A stretch of 64,000 nucleotides of DNA from Heterodontus francisci (Eukaryota): the NCBI RefSeq assembly GCF_036365525.1, contig NC_090402.1, positions 20,653,543-20,717,542 on the forward strand, in the 5' to 3' direction. The notes under the pieces are model-generated. The model saw only the letters and a list, made by a program, of their open reading frames with translations. It was not told where the DNA came from and searched no databases. Each line of letters begins with the position of its first letter. The first letter of the stretch is position 1. Positions 374-64,000 of the stretch are shown here, one piece after another. The position numbers were made by a program, and so were the translations under genes.

Positions 374-1486
374 GGGCTGAATTTTATAACAGACCACATG
401 TCGTGGAGCCAGGGCAATCCTAAGCGCGACGGCTGATTTAAATAGCTTGGAGGGGGCAGGCTGTCTGTCCCTGGCAATGGCGTCAGTTGCCTGTGCGCAG
501 GCGCTGATGCCATTTTTAAAGGTCTGTCAGCCCTATCGGTAAATTTAAATATTTAAAGTTAAATGGAATGAAATTAAATAAATACATCTCTTTTGCCACT
601 CTCCCACTCCCGCAATAACAATTAAATTAATTATTTTCCCTTTCCCACCCCACAACACTTACCTTTGCCATCTGACCTACCCTCCCAAAATTTAACCTCC
701 AACCCTTCCCACCATCCCCTACACCTTGACATTAATTTGACCTAGCTCTCCACAACACTGATAAACTTACCTCCTCCCCCCTCCCCACCAATGTTGTGCC
801 TCGTTTCCCCGGATGGGGATCCGAAGGTGCAGCATTTTTGGCCACCAGGGTGAAGATCACACTGGGACATCAGGAGGCGATGTTAAATTAATTAATTCAG
901 GGGTATTTTAATTTATTGAAATATTTAAATTGCAGTCCCGTTGCCGAGCGGTGGGGTGCGGGGTGGGGGGGCACCACAAGGCCTCGCCGCCGGGGAGGCG
1001 GTGGCGTATTGGCAATGTCACTGGTCTAGTAACCCAGAGACTCAGGCTACTGTTCTGGGGACATGGGTTCGAATCCCACCATGGCATTTGGTGAAATTTG
1101 AATTCAATTAATCTGGGAATTAAAAACAAAGTTAGTCTAATGGTGACCATCAACCATTGCTGATTGTTGTAAAAACCCATCTGGTTGACTAATGTCCTTC
1201 AGGGAAGGAAATCTTCTGTCCTTACCTGGTCTAGCCTACATGTGACTCCAGACCCACAGCAATGTGGTTGACTCTTAAAATGCCCTCTGAAATGGCCTAG
1301 CAAGCCACTCAGTTGAAAAGCAGTTAGGGAAGGGCAATAAATGCTGGCCTAGCCAGTGACGCGCACATCCCACAAATGAATGAAAAAAATATATCGGCCC
1401 AGATCCTGTCGACATTGGGATCCGAGGCCATCTTCAGGCCCACCTGCCACAGATCCTGATGTCGAGGGCTCCATAAAATCTGGCCC
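374..1486. mobile_element. Harbinger-family MITE (contains a SINE at 992-1390)
   Basis: TIRs GGGCTGAATTTTAT / ATAAAATCTGGCCC; 3-bp TSD ATT (371-373, 1487-1489); internal similarity to the MITE at 37338-38172. Confidence 0.8.
992..1390 (+). mobile_element. tRNA-headed SINE sharing both its 5' head and 3' tail with the LINE at 40833-45042
   Basis: A-box-like TGGCGTATTGG, B-box GGTTCGAATCC, tail GGGCAATAAATGCTGGCCTAGCCAG...ATGAATGAAAAAAA. Confidence 0.85.
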
Positions 1487-6009: not shown

Positions 6010-6334
6010 CCCAGCCTGAGCCTGAATTAAGAGGACTTCAGTCCCATGTGATGGCCAGGATCAAGTGGGTGCAGGGAATAAAGGGGACAAGGGGGAGTTG
6101 ACTCTGCGCCACGGTTTACAATTCCTTCACAATTTGCTTCAGAAAAAGGAAAGGGAGTATGAGCTGCAATATCTGTGTTATCTGAGTCTGGCAAGATAGA
6201 GTTCCTTTGTAAACTAAGGTGGTAGGGTATCAATGGGGAGCAGTGACTGCTGAATTAACATGGCTAAGTGATGGTCTAGTTGTCTGGTTTAAAATTTAAA
6301 CACTAATTTAATTTTCTGCATTTTGGTAGTGGAT

Positions 6335-6555
6335 GCTGACCAGGGCACAAGGAGAATTGCTCTTTTTCACATACTGCATTGGGATCTTTAATGTCCACCT
6401 GAATCAGACAATGGGGACCTCAGTTTAATATTTCATCAAAAAAGCAGCCTTCTCTCAGTACTGTACTGGAATTTCAGTTTGGACTGTGCACTCCGTTCCC
6501 AAAGCTGGGCTTGACTGTGGCTCAGAAGTGCAAACCACTGAATCTAGCTGACAGT
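6335..6555 (-). mobile_element. Degraded Deu-domain SINE (SacSINE1/AmnSINE1-like)
   Basis: GGGATCTTTAATGTCCACCTGA...GGGGACCTCAGTTTAATATTTCATC...CTCAGTACTGTACTG resembles the Deu-SINE consensus as recalled. Confidence 0.6.
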
Positions 6556-8361: not shown

Positions 8362-9235
8362 TAGAATATACAGCCCAAACATAGGCCATTTTTGCCAACC
8401 AGTCCATGCCAACATTTATGCTTCACTCGAGCCACCTCCTATCCTTCCTCATCTAACTATCAGCATAACTCTTTATTCCCTTCACCCTCATATGCTTATC
8501 TAGCCTCCCCTTAAATACATAAATACCATTCACCTCAACTAGTCCCTATGGTAGAGTGTTCTGCATTCTCACCGCTCTCTGGGTAAAGAAGTTTCTTCTG
8601 AATTCCCTATTTGATTTATCGGTTACTATGTTATATTGATGACCTCTAGTTTTGCTCTTCCCCACAAGTGGAACACTGTGTCTAATCCATCAAAACCTTT
8701 CAGAATTTTAAAGGCCTCTATTAGGCCACCCCTCAGCCTTCTCTTTTCAAGAGAAAAGAGACCCAGCCTGTCAATCCTTTCCTGGTACCTATAACCTCGC
8801 AGTTCTGGTATCATCCTTATAAATCTTTTTTGCACCCCCTTCAGTGCCTCAATATCCTTTTTATAATATGGTGACCAAAACAGCACACAGTACCAAGATT
8901 CAATACAAGTTTAGCATAACATTTCTACTTTTCAATTCTATCCCTCTAGAAATAAACCCTAGTGCTTGGTTTGCTTTTCTTATGGCCTTATTAACCTGTG
9001 TCACAACTTTGTGATCTGTGTATTTGTACTCCCAGATTCCTTTGCTCCTCTAACTCATTTAGATTCTTATTTTCCAAGGAATATGTGACCTCCTTATTTT
9101 TCTCACCAAAATGTAATCCCTCATGCTTAGCTGTGTTGAAATGCATTTGCCAATTATATGCCCATTCTGCAAGTTTATTAATGTCTGCTTATAATTTGTG
9201 CAGTGCTCCTCAGTATTGACTATCCCCCTGACCCA
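8362..9235 (-). mobile_element. CR1 LINE 3' fragment
   Basis: ORF 8626-8886: FWSPYYKKDIEALKGVQKRFIRMIPELRG...LFSLEKRRLRG. Confidence 0.9.
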
Positions 9236-9278
9236 CCATGCACATTCTCGGGATTAATACTCCAAGCTTCTAGATTAA

Positions 9279-10055
9279 CGTGTACTTCATTCAATGTACT
9301 ATACTGTATTCTCTGCTCACAATGTGGTATCCTCTACATTGGGGAGACCAAATGCAGACTGGGTGACCGTCTTGCGGAACACCTCCGCTCAGTCCGAAAG
9401 CATGACCCCGAGCTTCTGGTTGCTGGCCCTTTCAACACTCCCCCCTGCTCTCATGCTCACATCTCTGTCCTGGGATTGCTGCAGTGTTTCAGTGAACATC
9501 AACGCAAGCTCGAGGAACAGCAACTCATTTACCAATTAGGCACACTACAGCCTGCTGGACTGAACATTGAGTTCAATAATTTCAGAGCATGACGGGCCCC
9601 CCATTTTACTTTAATTTTTAGTTATTTTTTTCTTTTTGTGTTTATTTTATTTTAATTTGTTCAGTTTGTTTCTACTGTGTCTACCCACTGTTTTTTTTTA
9701 ATGTTTGTGCTGCTGGCTGTTCAGTTTTCAGTCCATTAACACCCTACCTGTACTAATGCTTTGTCTTTCAGCACACTATTAACATATTGTTTGCCTTTAC
9801 TCCATGACCTTCTGGTCAGCTATTCTGTGACCTTGTCCTATCAACACCTTCTCTTTTGTTATCTCTTGCCCCACCCCCCGCTTTACTTGCTTAAAATCTT
9901 TTACATTTCTTATAACTGCCAGTTCTGAAGAAGGGTCACTGACCTGAAACGTTAACTCTGCTTCTCTCTCCACAGATGCTGCCAGACCTGCTGAGTATTT
10001 CCAGTGTTTCTTGTTTTTATTTCAGATTTCCAGCATCCGCAGTATTTTGCTTTTA
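9279..10055 (+). mobile_element. Penelope-like element, 5'-truncated: GIY-YIG endonuclease end plus 3' repeat
   Basis: ORF 9203-9592 (NVLYCILCSQCGILYIGETKCRLGDRLAEH...GLNIEF); flanking direct repeat TTCTAGATTAA at 9268-9278 and 10056-10066. Confidence 0.9.
9921..9957 (+). ncRNA. Minimal hammerhead ribozyme motif in the Penelope terminal repeat
   Basis: AGTT-CTGAAGA-AGGGTC act GACCT-GAAAC-GTT-AACT: catalytic core CUGANGA/GAAA, stem II GGTC/GACC, palindromic AACGTT stem III, stem I AGTT/AACT. Confidence 0.7.
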
Positions 10056-20695: not shown

Positions 20696-23290
20696 TCTAG
20701 CAGCTCAAAACTGGGTATTCATGACTTGATGTGGGCCTTCAACAGCACCAGGGTTGTATTCCACCACAACCCTGTAAACTCATGGCCTGGCATATCCCTC
20801 ACTCTGCCATGACCATCAAACTGGATGACCAACCTTGGCTTAATGAGGAGTGTAGGAGCGCATGCTAAAAGCAGTACCAAGTGTACCTAAAAATGAAGTG
20901 CTAATCTGCGGAAGCTACAACGCAGGACTACATGCATGCTAAACAACATAAGCAGCATGCTATAGACAGAGTTAAGCAATGCCACAACCAATGTACCATA
21001 TCGAAGCTTTGCAATCTTTCCACATCCAGCTGCGAATGGTGAACAATTAAACAATTAATGGGAGTCGGAGGCTCCATGAGCATCCCTATCCGTGACGATA
21101 TCGGAGCCCAGCCTGCCAGTACAAAAGGAAAGGCTGAAGATTTCATCACAGTCTTCAGCCAGAAGTCCCGACTGGATGATTCCTTAGATTCCCACCATGA
21201 CAGATGCCAGACTTCAGAATCCCTGACAATCAACATCAGGGTTGGTCATCTAGCTTGAAGGTCATGGTAGAGTGAGGGATATGCCAGGCCATGAGGTTAC
21301 AGGTTGTGGTAGAATGCAATCCTGATGCTGTTGATGGCTCACAGCAGCTCATGGATGCCCATGAATTCAATTCACGCCACGTGATATCATGAAATGGCTA
21401 GGAGCATTGGACACAGCAAAAGCTAGGGCCCCATCATCATCTGAGCTATAGCGTTGATGATCATTGCTCCAGAAATAGCTGCACCTCTAGCCAACGTGTT
21501 CCAGTACAGCTAAAACACTGGCATCTAACCAACAAAGTGGAAATTGCCCAACTATGTTCCGTCCACAAAAAACAGGAAGCATGCAATCCAGCCAATTCGT
21601 GCCCCATCAGGCAACTCGCAATCATCAGCAAAGAAAGGAAGATGTTAACAGTGTTATCAAATGGCATGTATTTTTTTTTTATTCATTCATGGGATGTTGG
21701 CATCACTGGCCAGGCCAGCATTTATTGCCCATCCTTAATTGCCCTTGAGAAGGTGGTGGTGAACTGAGTGGCTTGCTAGGCCATTTCAGAGGGCATGTAA
21801 GAGTCAACCACATTTGCTGTGGGTCTGGAGTCACATGTAGGCCAGACCAGGTAAGGACAGCAGATTTCCTTCCCTAAAGGACATGAGTGAACCAGATAGG
21901 TTTTTACAACAATCGACAATGGTTTCATGGCCATCATTAGACTAGATTTTTAGTTCCAGATGTATTAATTGAATTCAAATTCCACCTTCTGCTGTGGTGG
22001 GATTCGAACCCATGTCCCCAGAGCAATACCTTGGGTCTCTGGGTTACTAGTCTAGTGACAATACCACTATGCCACCGCCTCCCTGTCTTCACCAATAACC
22101 TGCTCACCGATGCGCAGTTTGGGTTCTGCCGGGACCACGTGGCTCCAGACCATGTTATAGCCTTGGTTCAAACATGGACAAAAGAACTGAATGAAGTGAG
22201 AGTGACTGTCCTTGATATCAAGGCAGCATTTGACTGAATGTGGCATCAAGAAACCGTGGTAAAATTGAAGTCAATGTGGATCGGAGGAAACTCTCCACTG
22301 ACTGGAGTCTTAACTAGCACAAAGGAAAATGGTTGTGGTTGTTGGAGGCCAATCATCTCAGCCCCAGGACATTGCTGCAAGAGTTCCTCAGGATAGTGTT
22401 CTAGGCTCAATCATCTTCAGCTGCTTCATGAATGAATTTCCCTTCATAAGGTCAAATGTGGGGATGTTAACTGATGATTCCACCGTGTTGAGCTCCATTT
22501 GCAATTCCTCAGGTATTGAAGCAACCTGTGCCTGCATGCAACAAGACAACATTCAGCCTTGGGCTGATAAATTGCAAGCAATGTTCATGCCTCACAAGGG
22601 CAACAAGAGATGGTCTAAGCACCTCCCCTTGATATTCACTGGCATTACCATCATCGAAACACCGACAATCAACATCCTGGCAGGGGTGGGGGATGGGGGT
22701 ACCAATGACCAGAATCTTGACTTAAATATTGCAGCAACAAGAGCAGGTCAGCTGCTGAGTATTCTGCAGCGAGTGACTCACTTCCTGACTCCCCAAAGCC
22801 TTTCCACCAACTACAAGGCACAAGTCAGGATGGTGATGGAATATTCTCCAACTGCTTGGATGAATATGGCTCCAACAGCACTCAAGAACCTCGACACTAT
22901 TCAGGACCAAGCTGCCTCTTTGATCGGCACTCTATCCACCACTCGTGCAGCGTGGCTGCAGTGTGTACCATCTACAAGATGCACTGCAGCAACTTGTCAA
23001 GGTTTCTTCAACAGCACTTCCAAACCTGTGAACTCTATCACCAGGAAAGACAAAGCCAAGAGGCATGTGGCAAATCCCCCTCCAAGTTACACACTATCCT
23101 GACTGACTTGGACCTATATTGTGATTGCTTCATCATCACTGGGGCAAATTCCTGCAACTAACTATCCAACACTGCTGTGGGAATATCTTCACCACACAGA
23201 CTGCAGCAGTTCAAGAAGGTGGTTCACCACTACCTTCTCAAGGGCAATTAGACATGAGCAGTAAATGCTGGCTTTGGATGCACTCAACAG
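20696..23290 (+). mobile_element. 5'-truncated copy of the tRNA-headed LINE (RT region), interrupted by an inverted segment and an antisense SINE
   Basis: DAQFGF, VLDIKAAFD, VPQDSVLG, LTDDST (degenerate RT motifs) in ORFs 22031-22237 and 22329-23102. Confidence 0.85.
21670..22083 (-). mobile_element. Well-preserved tRNA-headed SINE copy
   Basis: Reverse complement begins GGGAGGCGGTGGCATAGTGG (A-box), contains GGTTCGAATCC (B-box), and ends in the LINE tail plus polyA. Confidence 0.9.
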
Positions 23291-24469: not shown

Positions 24470-24817
24470 TTAGATTAGATTAGAGATACAGCACTGAAAC
24501 AGGCCCTTCGGCCCACCGAGTCTGTGCCGCACATCAACCACCCATTTATACTAATCTTACACTAATCCCATATTCCTACCAAACATCCCCACCTGTCCCT
24601 ATATTTCCCTACCACCTACCTATACTAGTGACAATTTATAATGGCCAATTTACCTATCAACCTGCAAGTCTTTTGGCTTGTGGGAGGAAACTGGAGCACC
24701 TGGAGAAAACCCACGCAGACACAGGGAGAACTTGCAAACTTCACACAGACAGTACCCGGAATCGAACCCGGGTCCCTGGAGCTGTGAGGCTGCGGTGCTA
24801 ACCACTGCACCGCACTG
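24470..24817 (-). mobile_element. V-SINE (HE1-like)
   Basis: tRNA head GTGCAGTGGTTAGCACC/GGTTCGATTCC; V-domain AGTTTGCAAGTTCTCCCTGTGTCTGCGTGGGTTT...GTTTCCTCCCACA; CR1-like tail GGGCCGAAGGGCCTGTTTC. Confidence 0.9.
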
Positions 24818-35616: not shown

Positions 35617-37035
35617 TCAGCGGACATCAGGTACCTGATACAGCTTAGTGCAGGATGTCACATGACGATGGAAACTGTCTCGCCACATAAATTTCTTACC
35701 GCAGATGTGGCACTCGTACGGTTTAATGCCAGTGTGGATCTTCATATGGCCAACAAGATGGTGCTTCATTTTAAATTTCTTACCACAAACACCACAGCCG
35801 TAAGGCCGAAGACCAAGATGCATGCTCATATGCCGATCTCGCTGACTCTTGTGAGTAAAATTTTTGCCACATTGGCAAGGGTAAAGTTTGTAAACAACAG
35901 CTGTGAAGCCAGAGTGAGAGGTCTTTTCACTGACACCCAGTCCTAGCTCAGCTTCAACGCCATACCCTGGCAACCGATTCACCTGCATTTCAGCTGCTGT
36001 TAAAGGGTCCTGATGGTGTCCACTGACATTTATCTCCCCCCGGTCAGCTGAAAATTCATCCAGTGATGAACCATAGTAATCGACCTGTTCATCATAAGAA
36101 CTATGCTCGGGACCTTCTTTAAAGACCTCCTGTGTTTTGGCAGCAATATTAAAGCTGTCATCAATGCTGGAAGATTGTATTACTGGTTCTGCCTGAGTAA
36201 TATTTTCTGATTCAGAGACACGTTGCTCTTCGGTAGTAGAGCGTGTTGTTGCATTATCATAATCCTGTTCAAATTTTTCCTGTTTCACATACACCCACTG
36301 TTTGTGAGGCATTATACTGGGTTGACTATAGATTGGCCTGGTATACGAGTACTCCACACTATCACTTGCTCCTTCCTCACCATCCTGGCTGTTCAATTCT
36401 GCACTTAAATGATCATGCTCCCCGGAAGAATTGCTAGGAAGGTTGTCATTGTCCATTAATTGGGGCGGTGACATGTCATCCTCTTTGGGAGTCTCTTCGC
36501 CATTTTCATCAGCCTTTGAAACGTCATTCACACTTTTATAAAACTCAGGTTGCCCCACAGCTCCAAGTTCTGAAGGTTCTACTGAACCAATAAAATTGCT
36601 GCTGCTGGGTGACTGATGATCATTCAAATGATTAGACTTCTGATAATGAACTGCTGGGCACACCTTTAAAAGTTCTGTACACTTATCTACAACATGCCAC
36701 ATTTGAAGAAAGCTTGCCACTGTTAAGTAACTGACAATGTCAGTGGCTGGCAGTACAAGTTTTCCTGTGTAGCAAAACAACAAAACATTTTCAAATGCCT
36801 TTGGATTCATTACATCTGGTAGAAGGATTCGATTACTATTCTTCAGTAGTACCTGATCACAAAAATAAGGTGAAGTGGCAGCTAGGACAGCCCTATGGGC
36901 CCTGAATAATTGGCCCTGAACTTGAATAGCAATGTCACATAGCTGTCCCTCTTGACGCTGTTGGTTTAACTTCTGTAGTAGAGTATTTGTAAAATTCGGG
37001 AACTCCACACGAAAAAAATTAGTTGTTAGCTCCAT
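35617..37035 (-). CDS. ZBTB43: Zinc finger and BTB domain-containing protein 43 (472 aa from MELTTNF; in-frame ATGs also at 37038 and 37050)
   Basis: BTB domain (FRVEFPNF..LLQKLNQQRQEGQLCD...SPYFCDQVLLKNS...FLQMWHVVDKCTE) and C-terminal fingers YPCQCGKNFTHKSQRDRHMSMH, CGVCGKKFKMKHHLVGHMKIH, FMWRDSFHRHVTSC; linker (SQDGEEGASDS, YDEQVDYYGSS) matches ZBTB43 as recalled. Acceptor TTTTGAACAG| gives exon start 37053. Confidence 0.95.
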   Translation of the reverse strand: MELTTNFFRVEFPNFTNTLLQKLNQQRQEGQLCDIAIQVQGQLFRAHRAVLAATSPYFCDQVLLKNSNRILLPDVMNPKAFENVLLFCYTGKLVLPATDIVSYLTVASFLQMWHVVDKCTELLKVCPAVHYQKSNHLNDHQSPSSSNFIGSVEPSELGAVGQPEFYKSVNDVSKADENGEETPKEDDMSPPQLMDNDNLPSNSSGEHDHLSAELNSQDGEEGASDSVEYSYTRPIYSQPSIMPHKQWVYVKQEKFEQDYDNATTRSTTEEQRVSESENITQAEPVIQSSSIDDSFNIAAKTQEVFKEGPEHSSYDEQVDYYGSSLDEFSADRGEINVSGHHQDPLTAAEMQVNRLPGYGVEAELGLGVSEKTSHSGFTAVVYKLYPCQCGKNFTHKSQRDRHMSMHLGLRPYGCGVCGKKFKMKHHLVGHMKIHTGIKPYECHICGKKFMWRDSFHRHVTSCTKLYQVPDVR

Positions 37036-37337
37036 CATGGATGAAAGCATGTACTGTTCAAAACATAAGACAACAATTATGTTAAACATGATTTTGGAAA
37101 ATGCTAATGTAATGCATCATTGATAATCAAAACGTCATTGTGAAAAATGTATTCCTGTCTAAGCCTCAGAAACTAGTTGTTGAAATATACTATTTGCTGT
37201 CAAGCAAAACGGACATTTTGAAGTTCAGAAATAAAGCCTTACATTGTTACAAGCAAAATCAAATCTTTCTCCTAAGCTTTGAAGTCCATATTTGTCCAAC
37301 TTCCTCCCATTGCAACCATTTTAGTGATAGGAATGAT

Positions 37338-39939: not shown

Positions 39940-40832
39940 ATCTGCCCCTCCCCTTTTGGCTTTCAGAAGAGACTGTTTCCTCCATGACATCCTGGTCCAC
40001 GCTTTCTCACTCCCAACACCTGCTCCCCTTTCCATGCAAGTGCAGGAGTTGCAACACCTGCCCTTTTACCTCCTCCTTTCCCACTGTCCGGGACCCCAAA
40101 CACTCTTTACGGGTGAAAAGTGACTTACTTGTACTTTTTCCAACATATTATACTGTATTCGATGCTTATGATGGAGTCTCCTCGACACTGGGGAGACAAA
40201 ATGCAGATTGGGTGATCACTTTACTGAACATTATCATTCAGTTTGTTTGCCAGACCCAGCGCTTCTGACCACTTGCCACTTTAACTCTCCATCCCACTCC
40301 AGTCTGACGTCTGTTGTTGGCCCCTACACTGTTCGAATGAAGCTGAACGGCATGTCAAGGAACAGCACCTCATCTATCTAAAAAGCACTTTAACAGCCTT
40401 AACATTGCATATAATTTGGACAGCGGGTGCTGGTAAAGGGGAATGGCTGCACCAGAGTCACTGGGAGTGGAGAGTTTGAGCTGGCGCTTGTTGTAAGGAT
40501 CTGCTATCGGTACCTGGCTGATGGAATGGCTCACACTCCTGGTGTATTTATTCTGCCATATTCTTGGGCCAAAGCTACAAAATTTTGCCAAATTTTTAAT
40601 ACTTCCATACCCCTCTGTTAATCAGCTGTGACTATTTAAACCTCCTCTGCACCCATCTTTTGTTTCTCTACTTGTTCCATCATCTCCTCCTTTTGCCTTG
40701 CACTATTATCCCTTTTGCCATTTAATAACTTCTGCCCTCAAACCTATCATAGATCTTCCCCTTTGTTCCTTCCCTATGCCCCCACCCTCACCCCTCATTT
40801 TTCACTGGCTCTGCACTTGAAAGTAACAGACC
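39940..40832 (+). mobile_element. Degenerate Penelope-like element; its 3' repeat resumes at 45043-45120 after the LINE insertion
   Basis: CNTCPFTSS...YCIRC...GETKCRLGDHFTEH GIY-YIG region; terminal repeat split as ...GAAAGTAACAGACC | TGAAACATTAACTCTGTTTCTCTCTC. Confidence 0.75.
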
Positions 40833-43800
40833 TTTTTTTATATATTCGTTCAGGGGATGTGGGTGTCGCTGGCTAGACCAGCATTTATTGCCCATCCCTA
40901 ATTGCCCTCGAGAAGGTGGTAGTGAGCTTCCTTCTTGAACCGCTGCAGTCCTTGGGGTGTTGGTACACCAACTGTGCTGTTAGGAAGGGAGTTCCAGGAT
41001 TTTGACCCAGCGACAGTGAAGGAACAGTGATATAGTTCCAAGTCAGGAATGATGTGTGGCTTGGAGGGGAATTTGTAGGTGATGTTCCCATGCATCTGCT
41101 GCCCTTGTTCGTCTAGGTAGTAGAGGTCACCAGTTTGGAAGGTACTGTCAAACGAGCCTTGGTGAGTTGCTGCAGTGCATCTTATTGATGGTACACATTG
41201 CTGCCACTGTGCGTCAGTGGTGAAGGGAGTGAATGTTGAAGGTGGTGCTTGGGGTGACAATCGAGCAGCTGCTTTGTCTTCAATGGTGTTCAGCTTCCTG
41301 TGTTGTTGGAGCTGCACCCATCCAGGCAAGTGGAGAGTATTACATCACACTCCTGACTTGTGCCTTGCAGATGGTGGACAAGCTTTGGGGAGTCAGGGGG
41401 CGAGTTACTCGCTGCAGAATTCCCAGGCTCTGACCTGCTCTTGAAGCTACAGCATTTATGTGGCTACTCCAGTTCAGTTTCTGGTCAATGGTAACCCCAG
41501 AATGTTGATAGTGGGGGATTCAGCGATGGTAATGCCATTGAACGTCAAGGGAAGATGGTTAGATTCTCTCTTGTTTGAGATGCTCATTGCCTAGCACTTG
41601 TGAGGCGCAAATGTTACTTGCCACTTATCAGCCCAAGCCTGGATATTGTCCAGGTCTTGCTGCATCTGGACACAGGCTGCTTCAGTATCTGAGGAGTTGC
41701 GAATGGTACTGAACACTGTGCAATCATCAGCAAGTGTCCCCACTTCTCATTTTATGATGGAGGGTAGGTCATTGATGAAACAGCTGAAGATGGTTGGGCC
41801 TAGGACACTACCCTGAGGATCTCCTGCAGTGATGTCCTGGTACTGAGATGATTGACCTTCAACAACTACAACCATCTTCCTTTGTGCTAGGCATGACTCC
41901 AACCAGCAGAGAGATTTCCCCCTAATTCCCATTGACTCCATTTTTTCTAGGGCTCTTTGATGCCATACTTGGTCAAATGCTGCCTTGGTGTCAAGGTCAG
42001 TCACTCTCACCTTACCTCTGGAGTTCAGCTCTTTTGTCCATATTTGGACCACGGCCGAAATCAGGTCAGGAGCTAAATGTTCCTGGTGGAACCCAAACTG
42101 AGCATCAGTGAGTAGGTTATTGCTAAGCAAGTGCCACTTGATAGCACTGTTGACGACCTCTTCCATCACTTTGCTGATGATCGGGTGTAGACTGATAGGG
42201 CAGTAAGCGGCCGGGTTGGATTTGTCCTGCTTTTTGTGCACAGGACATACCTGGGCAATTTTCCACATATATGGGTAGATGCCAGTATTGTAGCTGTACC
42301 AGAACAGCTTGGCTAGGGGCGAGGCTAGTTCTGGAGCACGTCTTCAGTGCTATTGCCAGAATGTTGTCGGGGCCCATAGCCTTTGCAGTATCCAATGCCT
42401 TCAGCCATTTCTTGATATCACATGGAGTGAATTGGATTGGCTGAAGACTGGCATCTGTGATGCTGGGGACCTCAGGAGGAGGCCGAGATAGACCATCCAC
42501 TCATCATTTCTGGCTGAAGATGGATGCAAATGTTTCAGTCTTGTCTTTTGCACTGATGTGCTGGACTTCCCCATTGTTGAGGATGAGGATGTTTGTGGAA
42601 CCTCCTCCTCCTCCTGTCAGTTGTTTAATTGCCCACCACTATTCACTACTGGATGTGGCAGGAATGCAGAGCTTAGATCTGATCTGTTGGTTGTGTGATC
42701 GCTTCGCCCTATCACATGCGGCTTTCGTTGTTTGTCAAGCAAGTAGTCCTGTGTTGTAGCTTCATCAGGCTGACGCCTCATTTTGAGGTATGCCTGGTGC
42801 TGCTCCTGGCTCCTGCTCGCCTGCACTCTTCATTGAACCAGGGTTGGGCCCCCCGACTTGATGGTAATGGTAGAGTGGGGGATATGCCAGGCCATAAGGT
42901 TACGGATTGTGGTTGAAAACAGCTTTGCTGCTGCTGACAGCCCACAGCGCCTCATGGATGCCAGTTTTGAGTTGCTAGATCTGTTCAAAATCGCTCCCAT
43001 TTAGCTCTGTAGTAGTGCCACACAACACGATGGTGGGTATCTCAGTGTGAAGATGGGACTTCGTCTCCACAAGGACTGTGCAGTGGTCACTCCTACCAAT
43101 ACTGTCATGGACAGATGCATCTGCAACAGGTAAATTGGTGCTGTACCACCTATCCTTCGTGGGAAAGTTTCTGCGGGAAAACACCTTTGACCACCAATTC
43201 ATCAGGCAGTGGTCTGTATGGAATGTCCTCAAAGCTCTAGGGGAAAAGGAGATGGTGGATCCAGTCGGATGGTTCCCCGAGCAGACTGCCAAAGAATGCC
43301 TCATCACCAGAACTTTCAAACAAGCACCAAGACGTTGCTTGGTTGGTGGTGAAAAGGGCCCTCCCAGTCAGATCCTTCCTGCACGCCCGGAATCTCGCCC
43401 TCTCCACGCACTGCCCTCGAGGTGGTTGCGGTGGGGAAGAGACAGTTGCCCATCTCCTTCTGGAATGTGTCTTTGCAAAGCAGGTGTGGAAAGAGATGCG
43501 GTGGTTTTTGTCGAGGTTCATCCCAACCAGCTCTGTAACACAGGAGTCTGTGCTCTATGGGCTGTTCCCAGGGACGCACACTGAGATAAACATCAACTGC
43601 TGCTGGAGGGCTATCAATTCGGTGAAAGACGCTCTTTGGTCTGCCCAAAACTTGCTGGTCTTCCAGCGCAAAGAGTTGCCCATGACTGAGTGTTGCACAC
43701 TGGCACGTTCCAAGGTCCAGGACTACATGCTGAGGGACACACTAAAGCTGGGGGCAGCTGCTTCAAAGGCTGAATGGGGAAAAACCTCTGTGTAAGGTCC

Positions 43801-45042
43801 CCCCACCAGTGAACTGAGGGGCTGGACCCATGGGAAACCCCTTGGGCTGTATACACCAAATATGGGTTTGCTGTAAAATGTACATGGCATGTAAAATGGA
43901 ATGGAAGGGTTGTGAGGCAACTCACTCCTGTATCGAAGAAAACTGATTTCCTTTGCACTTTTGGAATGTCAACTTGGTGCTGTTTTGAACTGTTTTGTAA
44001 TGCATTTTTACAGATTTTTATGAATAAAGTATATTTTTGGGAAAAAAAAAGTAAATTGGTGTGGACGAGGCCAAGTAGGTTTTTCCCTGTTGTTGGTTCT
44101 GTCACCATGCCACAGACCCAGTCTAGCAGCTATGTCCTTTAGGACTTAGCCAGCTCAGTCAGTCGTGGTTCTACTGAGCCACTCTTGGTGATGGACACTG
44201 AAGTCCCCCATCCAGAGTACGTTTTGTGCCCTTGCTACCCTCAGTGCTTCTTCCAATTGGTGTTCAACATGGAGAAGTACTGATTCATCAGCCGAAGGGG
44301 GGTGGGGGGGACAGTAGGTAGTATTCAGCAGCAGGTTTCCTTGCCCATGTTTGACCTGCTGCCATGAGACTTCATGGGGTCCGGAGTCAATATTGAGGAC
44401 TCCCAGAGCAACTCCATTCTGACTGTAGACCACTGTGCCGCCACCTCTGGTGGGTCCGTCCTGCCGGTGAGTCAGGACATATCCAGGGATGGTGATGGTG
44501 GTGTCTGGGACATTGTCTGCAAGGTATGATTCCGTGAGTATGACTATGTCAGGTTGTTGCTAGACCAATTTTGGCACAAGTTGTTAGTAAGTAGGACATC
44601 GCAGGGAAAACAGGGCTGGGTTTGCCATTGTCGTTTCCAGTGCCTAGGTCAATGCCAGGTGGTTCATCCGGTTCATTCCTTTTCTTGGACGTTGTAGTAG
44701 TTTGATACAACTGAGTGGCTTCCTAGGCCATTTCAGAGGACATTTTAAGAGTCAACTACATTGCTGTGGGTCTGGAGTCACATGTAGGCGAGACCAGGTA
44801 AGGACGGCAGATTTCCTTCCCTAAAGGACACGAGTGAACCAGATGGTTTTTATAACAGTCGACAATGGTTTTATGATCACCTCTAGACTAGCTTTTTTTT
44901 TTTGAATTCCAGATTTATTAAGTGAATTTAAATTCCACCATCTGCCGTGGTGTGATTCGGACCCATGTCCCCAGAGCATTAGCCTGGGGCTCTGGGTTAC
45001 TAGTCTAGTCTAATGACATTAACACTACGCCACCGCCTCCCC
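40833..45042 (-). mobile_element. Apparently full-length, decayed CR1/L2-group LINE with a tRNA-like 5' head and a single EN-RT frame (~3.3 kb excluding the Tx1 insert)
   Basis: Head ~44700-45042; APE motifs QPDIVILTESYL, RQDGPTRGGGTVVY, MGDFSVHH, SDHCTV; RT motifs YCPISL, QFGF, DTKAAFD, PQGSVLGP; polyA end at 40833. Confidence 0.9.
43141..44050 (+). mobile_element. Tx1/L1-clade LINE 3' fragment nested in the LINE
   Basis: C-terminal CCHC CPRGGCGGEETVAHLLLEC; AATAAA plus polyA; 11-bp TSD GTAAATTGGTG (43130-43140, 44051-44061). Confidence 0.9.
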
Positions 45043-46679
45043 TGAAACATTAACTCTGTTTCTCTCTCGAATATGCCGCCTAACTTGCTGAGTGTTTCCA
45101 GCATTTTCTGTGTTTTAATTTAAAATGAACATTTGTCATTCATCTAGCTGCCATTAATTTCATCATCAGACATTAACTGACCCAAAGAAGAATCACTCAT
45201 ATCAGATAATTGCTCACTAGTAATCAATGCTTTAACACTCATGAATGGTCTCTGACCTAACTGAAATTTCAGCAGCTCCTAGTTTTGCGTCATTTGGACA
45301 GCTCAGTCAAGTGTCAGTTCTGGTTCAATTTTCTATGACTGTGATAGATCTTTATCAGCAATCCCATTTAGAATTCAGTTCTAAATGTGTTCATTTTTGT
45401 GTCATTCAAATTCACAGCACTTAACAAGCTCTTGAAATTTCAAAAAATTATGTTTTTCGAAAAAGTTAGTGGAAGAGTACCTTTTTGTAACTCAATCAAT
45501 CTAAAATTCTCCATATCGGAGAATGCTCTAAGTACTCAGTTGCACTTAAGAGTAGAAGAAAAATCCAATTGTCTGACAAGCAATCAATATCTAATGACTA
45601 GCTGCTATCGCTGCCAGGATCTTTTCCATTTCATTAATACTAGGCAGACCAGTGTTCCTCTGAACTTTCCTCTTGTACCTTTTAAGCTCCAAATAAGCTG
45701 TCCTTTCTGCTCACCCTTGGTCCTAAATGCTCATCCTCTACCCTACATCTGCACTGTATTTAATTCAAACTCATTCTTTTCCAGGAACTCAAACTAGAGT
45801 TACCTTTATTAGTGCCTAAACTATGAGCTTTGTCTGTCCATCTTGGTCTCTGAATGATAACAAACCCTTTCCAATAGCTCTAACATAAATGATATAATCT
45901 TCTGATTGTACATCGCCTTTTGTCATTTTAATTTGACCAATTTCCCCATGTCCACCAAAAGACAATCCTTGTGAATTACTATTCCCTACAGATATGGATT
46001 AGAGCACTGTAAACTGCTACATGTCAAAAGTGATAATAATAATGCAAAATAATGTTTCACTGTTGAAAAGAGAAGTGTACTGTCGCATTTAATGGCAAAT
46101 CAATCCAAATAACTTTGTGCTTGAGATGGCACATGGTATCATGGCAAGTTATTCTGTGAAGCTGAGTAATAGTTTTGGTAAAGGAAACTGCATGTAACTC
46201 ATCAAATGTTAAAAATAAATACACAGCCAGCATTGGGCTCTCTATGTTCATCAAGCTGTACTTTGAGTTTTACATTGTGATGAACAGTGAGTACAGTACA
46301 TTTCTACCCTAGTGTATTACAGAAGATTCTAAATACACCTCGATGCCTCATTAGGTACTACACCATCTCCAATCATTCCAGGGCAAGGAGTCAAAGCTCT
46401 GGAAAAATTCTACACAAATGCACTGGAACTCTTTTACATCAGCTCAGAACTGAATGCACAAATGGCTCAACACTATTGGATTTTCAACATTAAAACTGGA
46501 CAATTTCAGCAAACCATATATTACATAGTTAATTTTTCTGAAATTAGCATCCAAGCAATTTGCTTTGATACATAATGGGCAAGAATCTACCAAGTTAAAA
46601 CTGGAGTACAATTCATTGTTCATCATATGAAGACTGTATTGTCTGCTGATCGCAACTATGATCAAATGTTTCCTTACAT

Positions 46680-47541: not shown

Positions 47542-47664
47542 ATGTCAACAATATGGAGGCAAAATAGTGAGGTAACCCTGACACTTTATAAATCATTGGT
47601 GCAACTACATTGAGGGTACTGTGTGCAGTTCTAGTTCCCATAGTACAGAAATATACATAAGAGA

Positions 47665-50410
47665 ATGTTCCAGGCTTTAGAAGCTTCAGGCGGGATAGAG
47701 GGGGATGTAAAAGGGGTGGTGGAGTTGCATTACTGGTTAAGGAGAATATCACAGCTGTACTGCGGGAGGACACCTCAGAGAGGTCATGCAGCGAGGCAAT
47801 ATGGGTGGAGCTCAGGAATAGGAAGGGTGCAGTCACGATGTTGGGGGTTTACTACAGGCCTCCCAACAGCCAGTGGGAGGTAGAGGATCAGATATGTAGA
47901 CAGATTTTGGAAAGATGTAAAGGTAACAGGGTTGCAGTGGTGGGTGATTTTAACTTCCCCAATATTGACTGGGACTCACTTAGTGCTAGGGGCTTGGATG
48001 GGGCAGAATTTGTGAGGAGCATCCAGGAGGGCTTCTTGAAACAGTATGCAGATAGTCCAACTAGGGATGGGGCCATTCTGGACCTGGTATTGGGGAATGA
48101 GCCCGGCCAGGTGGTCGAAGTTTCAGTGGGGGAGCATTTCGGGAGCAGTGACCATAATTCCATAAGTTTTAAGGTACTTGTGGATAAGGATAAGAGTAGT
48201 CCTCGGGTGAAGGTGCTAAATTGGGGGAAGGCTAATTATAACAATATTAGGCAGGAACTGAAGAATTTAGATTGGGGGCGGCTGTTTGAGGGTAAATCAA
48301 CATCTGACATGTGGGAGTCTTTCAAACGTCAGCTGATTAGAATCCAGGACCAGCATGTCCCTGTGAGGAAGAAAGACAAGTTTGGCAAGTTTCGGGAAGC
48401 TTGGATAACACGGGATATTGTGAGCCTAGTCAAAACGAAAAAGGAAGCATTTGTAAGGGCTGGAAGGCTAGGAACAGATGAAGCACTTGAGGAATATAAA
48501 GACAGTAGGAAGGAACTTAAGCAAGGAGTTAGGAGGGCTAAAAGGGGTCATGAAAAGTCATTGGCAAACAGGATTAAGGAAAATCCCAAGGCTTTTTATA
48601 CATATATAAAGAGCAAGAGGGTAACCAGGGAAAGGGTTGGTCCACTCAAGGACAGAGATGGGAATCTGCGTGGAGCCAGAGGAAATGGGTGAGGTGCTAA
48701 ATGAGTACTTTGCATCAGTATTCAGCAAGGAGAAGGACAGTGGATGATGAGCCTAGGGAAGGGAGTGCAGATAGTCTCAGTCATCTCATTATCAAAAAGG
48801 AGGAGATGTTGGGTGTCTTGCAAAGCATTAAGGTAGGTAAGTCCCCAGGGCCTGATGGGATCTACCCTAGAATACTGAGGGAGGCAAGGGAAGAAATTGC
48901 TGGGGCCTTGACAGAAATCTTTGCATCCTCATTGGCTACAGGTGAGGTCCCAGAGGACTGGAGAATAGCCAATGTTGTTCCTTTGTTTAAGAAGGATGGT
49001 AAGGATAATCCAGGAAATTATAGGCCGGTGAGCCTTATGTCAGTGGTAGGGAAACTATTAGAGAGGATTCTTCGGGACAGGATTTACTCCCATTTGGAAA
49101 CAAACGAACTTATTAGCGAGAGACAGCATGGTTTTGTGAAGGGGAAGTTGTGTCTTACTAATTTGATTGAGTTTTTTGAGGAAATGACAAAGATGATTGA
49201 TGAGGGAAGAGCGGTGGATGTTGTCTATATGGACTTTAGTAAAGCCTTTGACAAGGTCCCGCATGACAGAGTGGTGCAAAAGGTGCACACGGGACCAGAG
49301 GTGAGCTGGCAAGATGGATACAGAACTGGCTCAGTCACAGAAGACAGAGGGTAACAGTGGATGGGTGTTTTTCTGAATGGAGGGATGTGACTAGTGGTGT
49401 TCCGCAGGGATCAGTGCTGTGACCTTTGCCGTTTGTAGTATATATAAATGATTTGGAGGAAAATGTAGCTGGTCTGATTAGTAAGTTTGCGGACGACACA
49501 AAGGTTGGTGGAGTTGCGGATAATGATGAGGATTGTCAGAGGATACAGCAGGATATAGATCGGTTGGAGACTTGGGCGGAGAAATGGCAGATGGAGTTTA
49601 ATCCAGACAAATGTGAGGTAATGCATTTTGGAAGGTCTAATGCAGGTGGGAGGTATACAGTAAATGGCAGAACCGTTAGGAGTATTGACAGGCAGAGAGA
49701 TCTGGGCGTACAGGTCCACAGGTCACTGAAAGTGGCAACGCAGGTGGATAAGGTAGTCAAGAAGGCATACGGCATGCTTGCCTTCATTGGTCGGGGCATA
49801 GAGTATAAAAATTGGCAAGTCATGTTGCAGCTGTACAGAACCTTAGTTAGGCCACACTTAGAATATTGCGTGCAATTCTGGTCGCCACACTACCAGAAGG
49901 ACGTGGAGGCTTTGGAGAGGGTACAGAGGAGGTTTACCAGGATGTTGCCTGGCCTGGAGGGCATTAGCTATGAGGAGAAGTTGGAAAAACTCGGATTGTT
50001 TTCACTGGAATGACGGAGGTGGAGGGGCGACATGATAGAGGTTTACAAAGTTATGAGCGACATGGACAGAGTGGATAGTCAGAAGCTTTTTCCCAGAGTG
50101 GAAGAGTCAGTTACTAGGGGACATAGGTTTAAGGTGCGAGGGGCAAAAGTTTAGAGGGGATGTGCGAGGCAAGTTTTTTTTACACAGAGGGTGGTGAGTG
50201 CCTGGAACTTGCTGCCAGGAGAGGTGGTGGAAGCAGATACGATAGCGACATTTAAGAGACATCTTGACAAATATATGAATAGGAAGGGAATAGAGGGATA
50301 TGGGCCCCGGAAGTGCAGAAGGTGTTAGTTTCGGCAGGCATCAAGATCGGCGCAGGCTTGGAGGGCCGAATGGCCTGTTCCTGTGCTGTACTGTTCTTTG
50401 TTGTTCTTTG
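47665..50410 (+). mobile_element. Young 5'-truncated CR1 (HER1-like) LINE ORF2, EN and RT, with frameshifts and stops; inserted in an older CR1
   Basis: GVYYRPP, VGDFNFP, SDHNSI, GNYRPVSL, QHGF, YMDFSKAFDKV, KFADDTK; tail GGGCCGAATGGCCTGTTCCTGTGCTGTACTGTTCT. Confidence 0.95.
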
Positions 50411-61227: not shown

Positions 61228-64000
61228 TGTTACAACCGACTGCTCAAGATAAAGCCCTCAATCAAAATATATGATTCTGATGGTGGTGGGAGAAACACAC
61301 CGTTGATTCAGTTCCACCCCTCCACAGATCGCCTAACATATAATTTTAAACTTTCCAAATGAAAGAAAACCACAGCCAAATTGACCATCTATTAACCATT
61401 CATGCTGGTCCGGCTGTCTGTCTGTGTCTGTTAATAGTGTCTCAAAAGCCAGTTTTTTAGCTAGTTTCAAATGCCAATCGACAGTACTGTATCTTTGTCC
61501 TTGTACTCCGAATAACTGTATCCTACGGCAACGAGAATGCATTCTTTGACTCAATCCCTGGAGCTTGCTGCCTTAAAGCAGTACTGATCCTTTTCCAGCC
61601 TTAAAGGCACACTGTATACTTCCCAGAAAAGAAAAAACAAAATACAGGATCATAACACATTCCACCCCCCCCCCCCCCCCACCACCCCGGCGGAATGAAA
61701 TGCCATTCCTGAAATATGTTTCATTACAATGTGTAAAAAATACAATTTGAAAAAAACCGCTAACACATTTTTTCCCGCATTTACAGATATACAGTCTTGT
61801 AAAATGTTAAGATTACAGCAACAAGTTCCATCAGAACATTTTCAGCTTTAAATTTTCAAATTAACCCATTTCAAATTTCCAAGCATAGTCTTCCAGTTGT
61901 TTTGTGTTTTCCTTCCAAGTGTCCCTATTGTCCATCACCTCAGCCAGGGGAACTGCACAGCTAGGAGCACTGACCACTACTGGGTTCACTATTCTCTGAG
62001 AAATTTCTCGAGTACCCCTTAACCTATGTGGCATCACTTGATATTGGGAAACCCTGTCCGGTGTAACATAAGCTGACTTTTTCTTACCCTGGGGTGTCAA
62101 AGGAATTTGACAGTATCCCTCCAACACATCTGTCTCTTTAAGACACATGGTGTTCCCCACTCTGTCCATACAGTCCTTTAAATGAGAATTTGGGTAGGAG
62201 TCTGCCTTCTTTACTGCACTGACTTTTCTACAGTCTATGCAAGTTTGAGCCGTCCCACCAGGTTTAGACATCAAGACCATCAGCGAATTCCAGCTGTCCT
62301 GACTAGGTTCAACTAAGTTGCCCTTCAGCATGCATTGTACCTCTGCTCCCCCTATACCCACATCATGTGTGGCTAAGGTTGTACATCCTAGCTTATCCCT
62401 ACAAATGTTTTGAAATGTTGTGAAAACCCTGGTTAGGTTTTCATGTTGTTTTGCCTCCAAGTGCAAAAGCTTATTGTTTAATTTTTCTAACCATTCCGTA
62501 TTCGCTAATCTGACAGTTGGAGGTTCAATATGAGAATTTCTTCGGCCTGTTTCTGCCTCATCCTCACTATCCTTTTCTTTCTCAACAGTCCCGATTACCT
62601 GGCATACCTGTACTGGTTTATCCTCCTCCCTGCGGTAATATTGTTTGAGCAAATTAATGTGACACAACCGGTTCTTCTTCCGGCGATCAGGGGTGTCAAT
62701 CAAGTAATCTACCTTACCCACTCTTTTGATCACTCTATATGGGCCACTGAACTCTGCTTTTAATGGTTCTCCCTGTAATGGTAACAACACTAATACTTCA
62801 TCCCCTGATTTTATGGTAGGTTGTGGTTTTCCTACCATTTGACAGGTATGGCATGTCCTACAAAATTGTCTCACATCGTTTACAAGACCTGGCCAGTAAT
62901 AATGTTGGCTTATGTGTGATTAGGTGTTCCGAATTCCCCTATGTCCTGCAAAAGGAATGTGTGCTAACCTTAATAATCCTTGTCGATATTTAGGTGGTAC
63001 CACTATCTGCTCAACAACTGTCCAGTCTTCATTGGCAGGTCTATGAGCCGATCTCCATTTCCTCCTCAAAACACCTTTTGTCATACAATAGCCTTATGGA
63101 ACTCCTTTCGCATCAGCTTCTGACAGAGCTGTCTGTGCTATTTGGTATATCTCTGCAACAGCTTGCTGTGCTGCAATGACAGATGATCTGTTAAACATCT
63201 CATTTGGATTTTCAAAATCCCCAGATAAGGTTTCAGATACTTGGCTATCTATTTGTGGTGCCCCTTTTACCCCCGCCAATGGATCCTGATAAGCCATTGC
63301 TCGGGTAACTACACACGCAGGAAATATTAATTTCACTCGGTTCCTCTGTAACTATAGGAGAAACTGATACTTTTGATCCAGCCAAATCATTTCCTAGGAG
63401 TAAATCAATTCCCTTTACTGGCAAACTGTGGATAACACCTACAGTTATTATCCCAGATATTAAGTTACTCTCTAAGCATACTTTATACAAAGGTATGGGT
63501 ACATTCTCCCCGCCAATTCCATTAACTAAAACTTTAAGTGTTCAAGGTGCTCTCTGGTGGAAACGTTATATCTTTCCCCAGCAAGAGAGTTTGGGTTGCT
63601 TCTGTGTCCCAGAGTATAATGATAGGTTTTCCTGCCTCACTTACAGGATACAAAGTTACTCTCCCCTTTGACAAAAATTCATTATAACTCTCAGGTATTT
63701 TATTCTTAACCTCTGCACTCCTTTCAGTCTTAGTATCTGGTTTCACAGCTGTCGTTAAAGCTATAGCCTGGTCTGCTATACTCTCAGTCAGAGTTTTTTC
63801 CTTTGCACTAACTTTGCGTACCCCAACAAGTCCTATGGGTTTACCTCGCAATTTCCGGCACTCTGAACGAAGATGACCCGTTTTTTTTTCAATGATAACA
63901 CTTCAGCTTGCGAACCTCACTTCTGCACTCAGCAATTTTCTTTATGGCCTGAGGAGGCCTGGGGCATTCCCAAATGTTCCTCCTTGTCCCCAGCTACTTG
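61228..64000 (-). mobile_element. Gmr1-like Ty3/Gypsy LTR retrotransposon (3' LTR 61228-61657, PPT ~61658-61690, decayed gag-PR-IN-RT), continuing beyond the window
   Basis: Gag knuckle remnant (GHLRSECRK ~63850-63900); protease IILWDTEATQTLL; IN HHCC (YYWPGLVNDVRQFCRTCHTCQ); GPY module; then RT motifs (IDCRKV, DSYP, YCQIPL). IN lies before RT. Confidence 0.9.

Follow-up and report, generated by a model that had tools for sequence, protein, structure and literature searches.

A tRNA-headed LINE copy interrupts a repeat

The 64,000-nucleotide stretch of Heterodontus francisci DNA that we analyzed (the window) carries, at 40833..45042 on the minus strand, a decayed full-length copy of a tRNA-headed Zenon LINE that belongs to an older subfamily and consists of 3.3 kb of element plus a nested insertion. 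Its tRNA-derived head, delimited by sequence and by column conservation, occupies 44944..45042 (minus strand); its A box spans 45032-45022, and its B box, which has mutated at this locus, spans 44963-44953. On the same strand, the head is followed by a noncoding body that is common to short derivatives of the element and is not a Deu domain (44708..44943), a spacer and leader upstream of the endonuclease (EN) ORF (44592..44707), a single APE endonuclease-reverse transcriptase (RT) ORF (40898..44591), and a 3' tail common to SINEs (40833..40920), with AATAAA at 40889-40884 and a short A-tail at 40839-40833. The stop codon of the LINE falls within this tail. Pfam places the endonuclease at 44559-44158 and RVT_1 at 42343-41750. 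The ORF is broken by indels, stops, and the nested insertion (an intact natural homolog is L125/P0001), and the copy diverges by ~10% from the family majority. The nested element, at 43141..44050 on the plus strand and thus opposite in strand to its host LINE, is the 910-bp 3' end of a 5'-truncated LINE of another kind (zf-RVT, poly-A), flanked by an 11-bp target duplication at 43130-43140 and 44051-44061. The original prediction had treated 40833..45042 as a single element without noticing this insertion; the single element stands, but its length is 3.3 kb and not 4.2 kb.

The minus-strand start at 45042 and the A/B-box head shared with the elements at 992 and 22083 were both as predicted, with 85-86% identity to those elements over 45042-44708. 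The two relatives are short derivatives made up of head, body, and tail: the one at 992..1393 (plus strand) has an older-subfamily head and its own breakpoint, and in the one at 21669..22083 (minus strand) the head is younger and the breakpoint, which differs, falls at a short microhomology. ARAGORN called a tRNA in the former paralog, at 1015-1088. In the LINE, the EN motif starts at ~44591, 117 nt past the end of the shared segment at 44708 and ~350 nt past the tRNA-like part proper, which bears out the claims that no SINE tail follows the head and that there is no space for ORF1.

The right half of the interrupted host repeat lies at 45043..45122 (plus strand), and the left half ends at 40832. 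The insertion is blunt: no target-site duplication is present, and the flanks, put together, restore a repeat that is intact five times within the window (9923-10055, 10222, 12915, 25409, and 57967), indicating that head and body arrived as one insertion, as had been proposed. The repeat itself is real, but the name Penelope given to it traces solely to a weak GIY-YIG fragment near one of the intact copies (9182-9589; Pfam E 0.003, below the cut-off). The locus is thus one broken copy of a 3.3-kb single-ORF LINE family.

Head, body, ORF, and tail replicate as one unit

The 6.0-Gb genome yielded 8973 first-look junction candidates, of which 40 were scored. Among the 39 other copies in this junction-picked set (three represent one duplicated locus), 30 start no more than 39 nt into the head, whereas nine are shorter. 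Copies were also picked by protein, with 40 taken from 150 endonuclease-protein matches (20 for long frames and 20 spread along the list); 26 of them begin at the first bases, two at positions 42-51, and 12 are shorter or ambiguous. A linker query placed 700 nt further in returned 29 copies, of which 17 attain the start (four of these are split by insertions), one starts at position 65, and 11 are truncated. Most copies picked with an old RT fragment are truncated (16/20); two include the head, and two extend beyond the stretch examined. The upstream flanks of the protein-picked and RT-picked copies have no alternative 5' region in common and resemble each other solely via duplicated loci or other repeats. 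The expectation that full-length copies genome-wide start at the tRNA head therefore held (28 of the 40 protein-picked copies do so, with unrelated flanks), and the genome-wide search gave neither a longer 5' region with ORF1 in other copies nor a junction confined to this locus. This head-LINE junction recurs in over 100 independent copies and in consensuses published for five species.

When the head of a young copy was used alone as the query, all 29 matches ran on into the LINE leader and 26 of them into the ORF. The ranking of these matches favors the query's own subfamily, so the heads carry subfamily marks. Head and ORF distances are correlated (Mantel rho 0.77, P 0.001; 56 copies, 15 head and 118 ORF columns). 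Between two subfamilies represented by 45 and 6 copies, pN is 0.015 and pS is 0.096 (pN/pS 0.16), and we conclude that the ORF experienced purifying selection during amplification. An intact single EN-RT ORF, also anticipated, exists in the natural copy L125, which is full length and whose open frame of 935 codons includes Exo_endo_phos and RVT_1 domains; the 430 nt upstream of the frame consist of head, body, and leader. The A box (positions 11-21 of the element) and the B box (~75-85) are conserved in the majority columns. A deletion at the EN start in all 38 copies of our first alignment proved to be a ranking artefact, as the query itself carries it, and the EN start was intact in the 10 copies examined from an independent query.

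These results show that the head, the body, the single EN-RT ORF, and the tail replicate as one 3.3-kb unit. The original prediction had proposed an autonomous family with a captured promoter; the shared 5' ends, the Mantel correlation, and the pN/pS ratio support the part of it that makes head and EN-RT body one replicating autonomous unit, and the polymerase is considered in the Discussion.

SINE-like families arose from the LINE by internal deletion

Two short families, with 1307 and 1688 first-look candidates, consist of the first 322 nt of the LINE joined to its last 75-90 nt. Their breakpoints differ, as do their heads: young and old head diagnostics stand at 100:42 in 15 copies of the 22083 type and at 18:107 in 15 copies of the 992 type. 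A third short type, found in two copies, joins position 412 to position 3101. The three breakpoints and the lineage-specific head marks identify the short elements as deletion derivatives of the LINE and not as independent donors caught while giving up a head; the first fusion itself may have been the capture of a SINE head by a Zenon LINE. Short SINE-like families thus arose from the LINE repeatedly by internal deletion.

The body of the LINE may resemble MER131. The label Deu domain of SacSINE1 failed for it against the printed Deu alignment, and the Deu core motif, as given in the PMC7245038 supplement, had no match in L125 at three mismatches. The Deu core has one match elsewhere in the window, a Deu-like relic at 6377-6395.

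Some 3' ends have a T+ SINE-like layout

Intact 3' ends were available for 62 copies, 54 of which could be classed by the number of T residues before the A-tail: none in 3 copies, one in 26, two in 3, three in 8, and four to six in 14. AATAAA lies ~45 nt upstream of the A-tail. We found no link between tail T-length and subfamily (best P 0.005 among 3104 columns). According to the sections of PMC8466645 consulted, T-runs at A-tails may lengthen through mutation. The 14 tails with four to six T residues directly before the A-tail have the layout of T+ SINEs.

The coding strand lacks Pol III terminators

Pol III terminates at TTTT and at TVTTT (PMC8466645, excerpt). The majority columns of 38 copies contain no TTTT in 3.3 kb, and TTT occurs in them 6 times, as against 63 for AAA, 63 for CCC, and 54 for GGG. 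TTTT before the tail is also absent from 14 of 19 uninterrupted young natural copies. For the natural ORF, we used a null of 2000 synonymous-codon shuffles in which protein and codon usage were fixed. TTT was observed 5 times against 15.0 expected, with none of the 2000 shuffles as low, and is the most depleted non-CpG trinucleotide in the ORF; TVTTT/TTTVT was observed 0 times against 4.1 expected (P 0.01). The corresponding values for T4 were 0 and 2.0 (P 0.10 under this strictest null, P 0.14 under a dinucleotide null), so that the absence of T4 taken alone is weak. Six further natural frames show the TTT deficit but are not independent of L125. We conclude that the coding strand is free of TTTT and TVTTT terminators.

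Several other causes of the T-tract loss were considered. The LINE is T-poor overall (20.7%). Constraint on splice sites or polyadenylation signals was not supported as a cause, because pyrimidine runs, acceptor- and donor-like splice motifs, and AATAAA are all at expectation, with no depletion relative to the codon shuffles. A mutational cause was not supported either: post-insertion changes to T amount to 15 of 1671 bases at 38 T4-creating sites, the same rate as elsewhere, indicating that the absence of T4 was kept by selection during copying. As LINE controls we used a single CR1 family and a single Zenon-like copy from outside. The CR1, which resides in the same genome, carries 13 T4 runs and shows no TTT deficit (67 against 68.8 expected). 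In the Zenon-like copy, which comes from an invertebrate and lacks the head, three ORF pieces contain 19 T4 runs, near expectation, and one of these pieces has TTT 21 against 26.8 (P 0.03). Host exon and nested LINE controls showed no T4 depletion. As the LINE copies share ancestry, the depletion records the history of one lineage.

A leader without subfamily differences precedes the EN frame

Upstream, the EN frame extends to a stop close to the end of the body, with no in-frame ATG between this stop and the endonuclease. The leader contains a conserved ATG (44676-44674), from which a 46-codon frame runs into the EN frame in another phase; in L125, the leader ATG lies 71 nt ahead of the start of the long frame, and by eye it is present in six of the seven published elasmobranch Zenon consensuses, in the portion of each that we compared. 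Between subfamilies, 0 of 111 columns differ in the leader and overlap, compared with 5 of 24 in the spacer ahead of the ATG and ~4% in the ORF. We infer that the leader and overlap carry a translation signal, which could be a frameshift, reinitiation, or a non-AUG start. The leader folds no better than shuffles (z -0.6), and a long-range pairing between the body end and the EN start, seen in one fold, was discarded because it too was no better than shuffles. A search of Rfam gave only a weak T-arm match, with no ribozyme match in L125.

All 24 sequencing runs listed consisted of contigs. The family is present in runs of several organisms, some contigs span the body-leader junction, and putative RNA assemblies contain many LINE copies, with an excess of 3' parts.

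The family matches the known elasmobranch CR1-Zenon

Among the protein relatives are fragments of 84-86% identity, which come from the gene models of one cow shark and one ray, together with full-length proteins at 33-35% identity, some of them from moths. In an RT tree of 10 rows without named references, the protein could belong with either the CR1-like or the Zenon-like rows. Beyond the source genome, Zenon DNA was found at one weak metagenome locus and one usable locus, and viral sequences gave 0 matches. The examined parts of PMC13343379 describe elasmobranch Zenon elements, none of which has ORF1 and all of which end in a poly-A tail that is unique to Zenon within the CR1 group; copies of the present family have such a tail. 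Compared by eye over their first 400 nt, seven elasmobranch Zenon consensuses from five species (PMC13343379 supplement) share the head, body, and leader, and two hagfish and one coelacanth Zenon consensus have no head and do have T-runs. On this sequence evidence, the family is already known, its consensus having been published as elasmobranch Zenon.

The absence of ORF1, which the original prediction had set against the usual CR1/L2-group elements, is no surprise: all Zenon elements described in the consulted parts of PMC13343379 lack ORF1. The lack of ORF1 is ancestral in Zenon and ordinary. The words "tRNA" and "polymerase" are absent from the main text of PMC13343379, as is "tRNA" from its supplement, and none of these terms was found in a whale shark preprint. 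The tRNA head, the terminator avoidance, and the derivation of SINEs are not remarked on in PMC13343379, and the head apparently has gone unremarked.

Discussion

In textbooks, LINEs encode protein and depend on Pol II, and SINEs are noncoding and depend on Pol III; LINEs are normally Pol II units. The feature described here is real and belongs to the known Zenon family, with a tRNA head that was apparently unremarked and a controlled signature of Pol III terminator avoidance. Judged from its sequence, the family is probably a Pol III-transcribed protein-coding retrotransposon; indirect support for Pol III comes from the avoidance of terminators, the terminator-like tails, and the amplification of derivatives that join head and tail. 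We consider it likely, if with slightly less assurance, that the whole history is of one kind: an autonomous coding family transcribed by Pol III since before the shark-ray split, with a promoter of tRNA origin, an ORF of 2.8 kb from which Pol III terminators were purged, translation independent of cap and AUG, and SINEs born by deletion.

TFIIIC would bind the internal A and B boxes of the head, which are kept at constant spacing in all subfamilies, in sharks and in a ray. Pol III would then initiate at the first G and traverse the 3.3 kb, a passage made possible once selection had removed T4 and TVT3 tracts, and it would stop at the T-run right before the A-tail or at the first flanking T-run. 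By analogy with T+ SINEs, AAUAAA-dependent polyadenylation would accompany termination at the tail T-run. The uncapped RNA would most likely be translated by way of the short conserved frame upstream or from a non-AUG start, which is the weakest step. The protein would bind its own RNA at the 3' tail, inserting it by target-primed reverse transcription, and as this would insert the element's own full-length RNA, each full-length copy would carry its promoter.

Transcription by Pol III is the best reading, and its main rival, which we regard as unlikely, is that the head, a captured SINE, has become an ordinary internal promoter or 5' UTR for Pol II, with the low T content due to composition, RNA surveillance, or Pol II pausing or terminating at T-tracts. 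Pol II is the usual polymerase of LINEs, a capped RNA would be easier to translate, AATAAA stands ~45 nt before the tail, and the T4 test alone gave only P 0.10. A Pol II promoter would also agree with the lepidopteran Zenon, which has no Pol III promoter in the part of PMC6740152 consulted. However, the co-resident CR1 has its 13 T4 runs, splice-like and polyadenylation motifs are not avoided, the A and B boxes keep their spacing across subfamilies, sharks, and a ray, and 410-nt derivatives that combine head and tail amplify.

The roles might instead be divided, with a Pol III template RNA and protein supplied in trans by Pol II read-through of host genes containing copies. Such a division, which we think improbable, would suit the lack of an in-frame AUG, the abundance of copies, skewed toward 3' parts, in putative RNA assemblies, and the mobilization of noncoding derivatives in trans, but purifying selection on an ORF linked to its head fits cis preference, and a leader and overlap without a single difference in 111 columns, against ~4% in the ORF, point to a signal in the element's own RNA. 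We are more doubtful still of co-transcription from a flank promoter with the tRNA-like head as a processing signal, an RNase P-type cut creating the sharp 5' end. The sharp ends themselves speak for it, as does the known flank-dependent transcription of R2 with self-cleavage (PMC4494074 and PMC5786205, in the passages seen); it leaves terminator avoidance unexplained, however, promoter boxes are kept in the head, and L125 has no Rfam ribozyme match. Finally, nested insertions are common among these repeats, and the locus could in principle hold a LINE fragment in a SINE or a one-off template-switch chimera, but as over 100 independent copies and the consensuses of five species all have this junction, we give an accident of this kind almost no credence.

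If Pol III does transcribe this family, it would provide a natural Pol III messenger RNA in a successful vertebrate family, and it would pose the question of how an uncapped 3.3-kb RNA is translated. It would also offer a direct route to SINE origin, by deletion of the middle of a tRNA-headed LINE and not by independent fusion of head and tail. Hagfish, coelacanth, and insects have Zenon relatives without the head, which offer a comparison for a promoter switch.

The closest known systems are other Zenon elements. The CarCar, HypSab, RhiTyp, ScyCan, and SquAca consensuses (PMC13343379, supplement excerpt) are mostly 3.24-3.31 kb long, with a single APE-RT ORF, no ORF1, and poly-A, as here; their first 400 nt are near-identical by eye to our LINE, and we saw no sequence difference. 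Lepidopteran Zenon (~3.3 kb, one ORF, poly-A) gave rise to Persaeus, short elements formed repeatedly at microhomologies, as here, but Persaeus has no tRNA homology or Pol III promoter in the text consulted (PMC6740152), and the derivatives described here keep the tRNA head. Insect Zenon-like relatives have a protein Met ~22 residues before the EN motif, whereas our LINE has no in-frame ATG. The Deu-SINEs SacSINE1 and LmeSINE1 (PMC5499810, in part) are tRNA-headed chondrichthyan SINEs with a LINE-derived tail, like the derivatives here, but their Deu core is absent from the LINE head. The T+ SINEs B2, Dip, and Ves share with the LINE a tRNA head, AATAAA, a variable T-run, and a short A-tail; they are short and noncoding in the account excerpted from PMC8466645, whereas the LINE is 3.3 kb long and has an ORF. 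R2 is likewise a single-ORF LINE whose RNA, according to the part of PMC4494074 consulted, is not a capped Pol II product, as we propose here. Unlike our LINE, R2 is a Pol I co-transcript with a ribozyme, site-specific insertion, and no internal promoter. RTE-1_DAn and related elements belong to the RTE clade, unlike Zenon, and are said to contain tRNA-like sequence, its position and function being left unstated in the passage of PMC5786205 that describes them; by analogy, RTE-1_DAn may be a precedent for a tRNA-headed LINE.

Sequence Context of the Zenon Copy

The window also carries a host gene of the ZBTB type, with a frame of 499 codons that encodes a BTB domain and C2H2 zinc fingers (35620-37116, minus strand). 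The control element was a young, canonical CR1 (47661-50010, plus strand), whose family copies are 94-97% alike; one of these, at locus L107, retains an open frame of 932 codons. LTR retrotransposon frames, Gypsy-like and with integrase zinc-binding and SH3 domains, lie at 61864-63902 (minus strand), and a further abundant repeat family of ~320 bp is represented at 24480, 27510, 38256, 51529, and 57378 by copies that are 84-92% alike. The decayed SINE at 6300-6500 (minus strand) has a Deu-like core motif and differs from the Zenon head. Within the Zenon copy itself lies a nested, 5'-truncated LINE (43141-44050, plus strand) with a poly-A and an 11-bp target duplication, and its zf-RVT domain indicates that it is probably of the L1/Tx1 type.

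Zenon Sequences at Other Loci

A second Zenon family copy (L132, G000:C4:54362000-54368000) is inserted in the host repeat that the window's Zenon copy interrupts, ~7 bp or less from the insertion site of the latter; given the abundance of this repeat, the near-identity of the sites may be due to chance. Another family copy is held by a duplicated segment found on three small contigs (L045, L068, and L069). A broken Zenon-like LINE with a poly-A (L166:3940-6950) lies on an AT-rich contig of 716 kb that is filed as an Endozoicomonas MAG, and this contig is probably animal host DNA within the Endozoicomonas bin. Two gene models predicted for a shark and a ray (P0004 and P0010), one of them for an aldo-keto reductase and the other for an uncharacterised gene, contain fragments of the Zenon ORF, as a result of either exonisation or annotation error.

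ATG at the End of the Body

The endonuclease frame has an ATG at the end of the non-coding body, and two codons on it reads TAG and then CAA (44723-44715, minus strand), a context associated with leaky termination. The in-frame position of this ATG is not shared by all of the published consensuses (PMC13343379).
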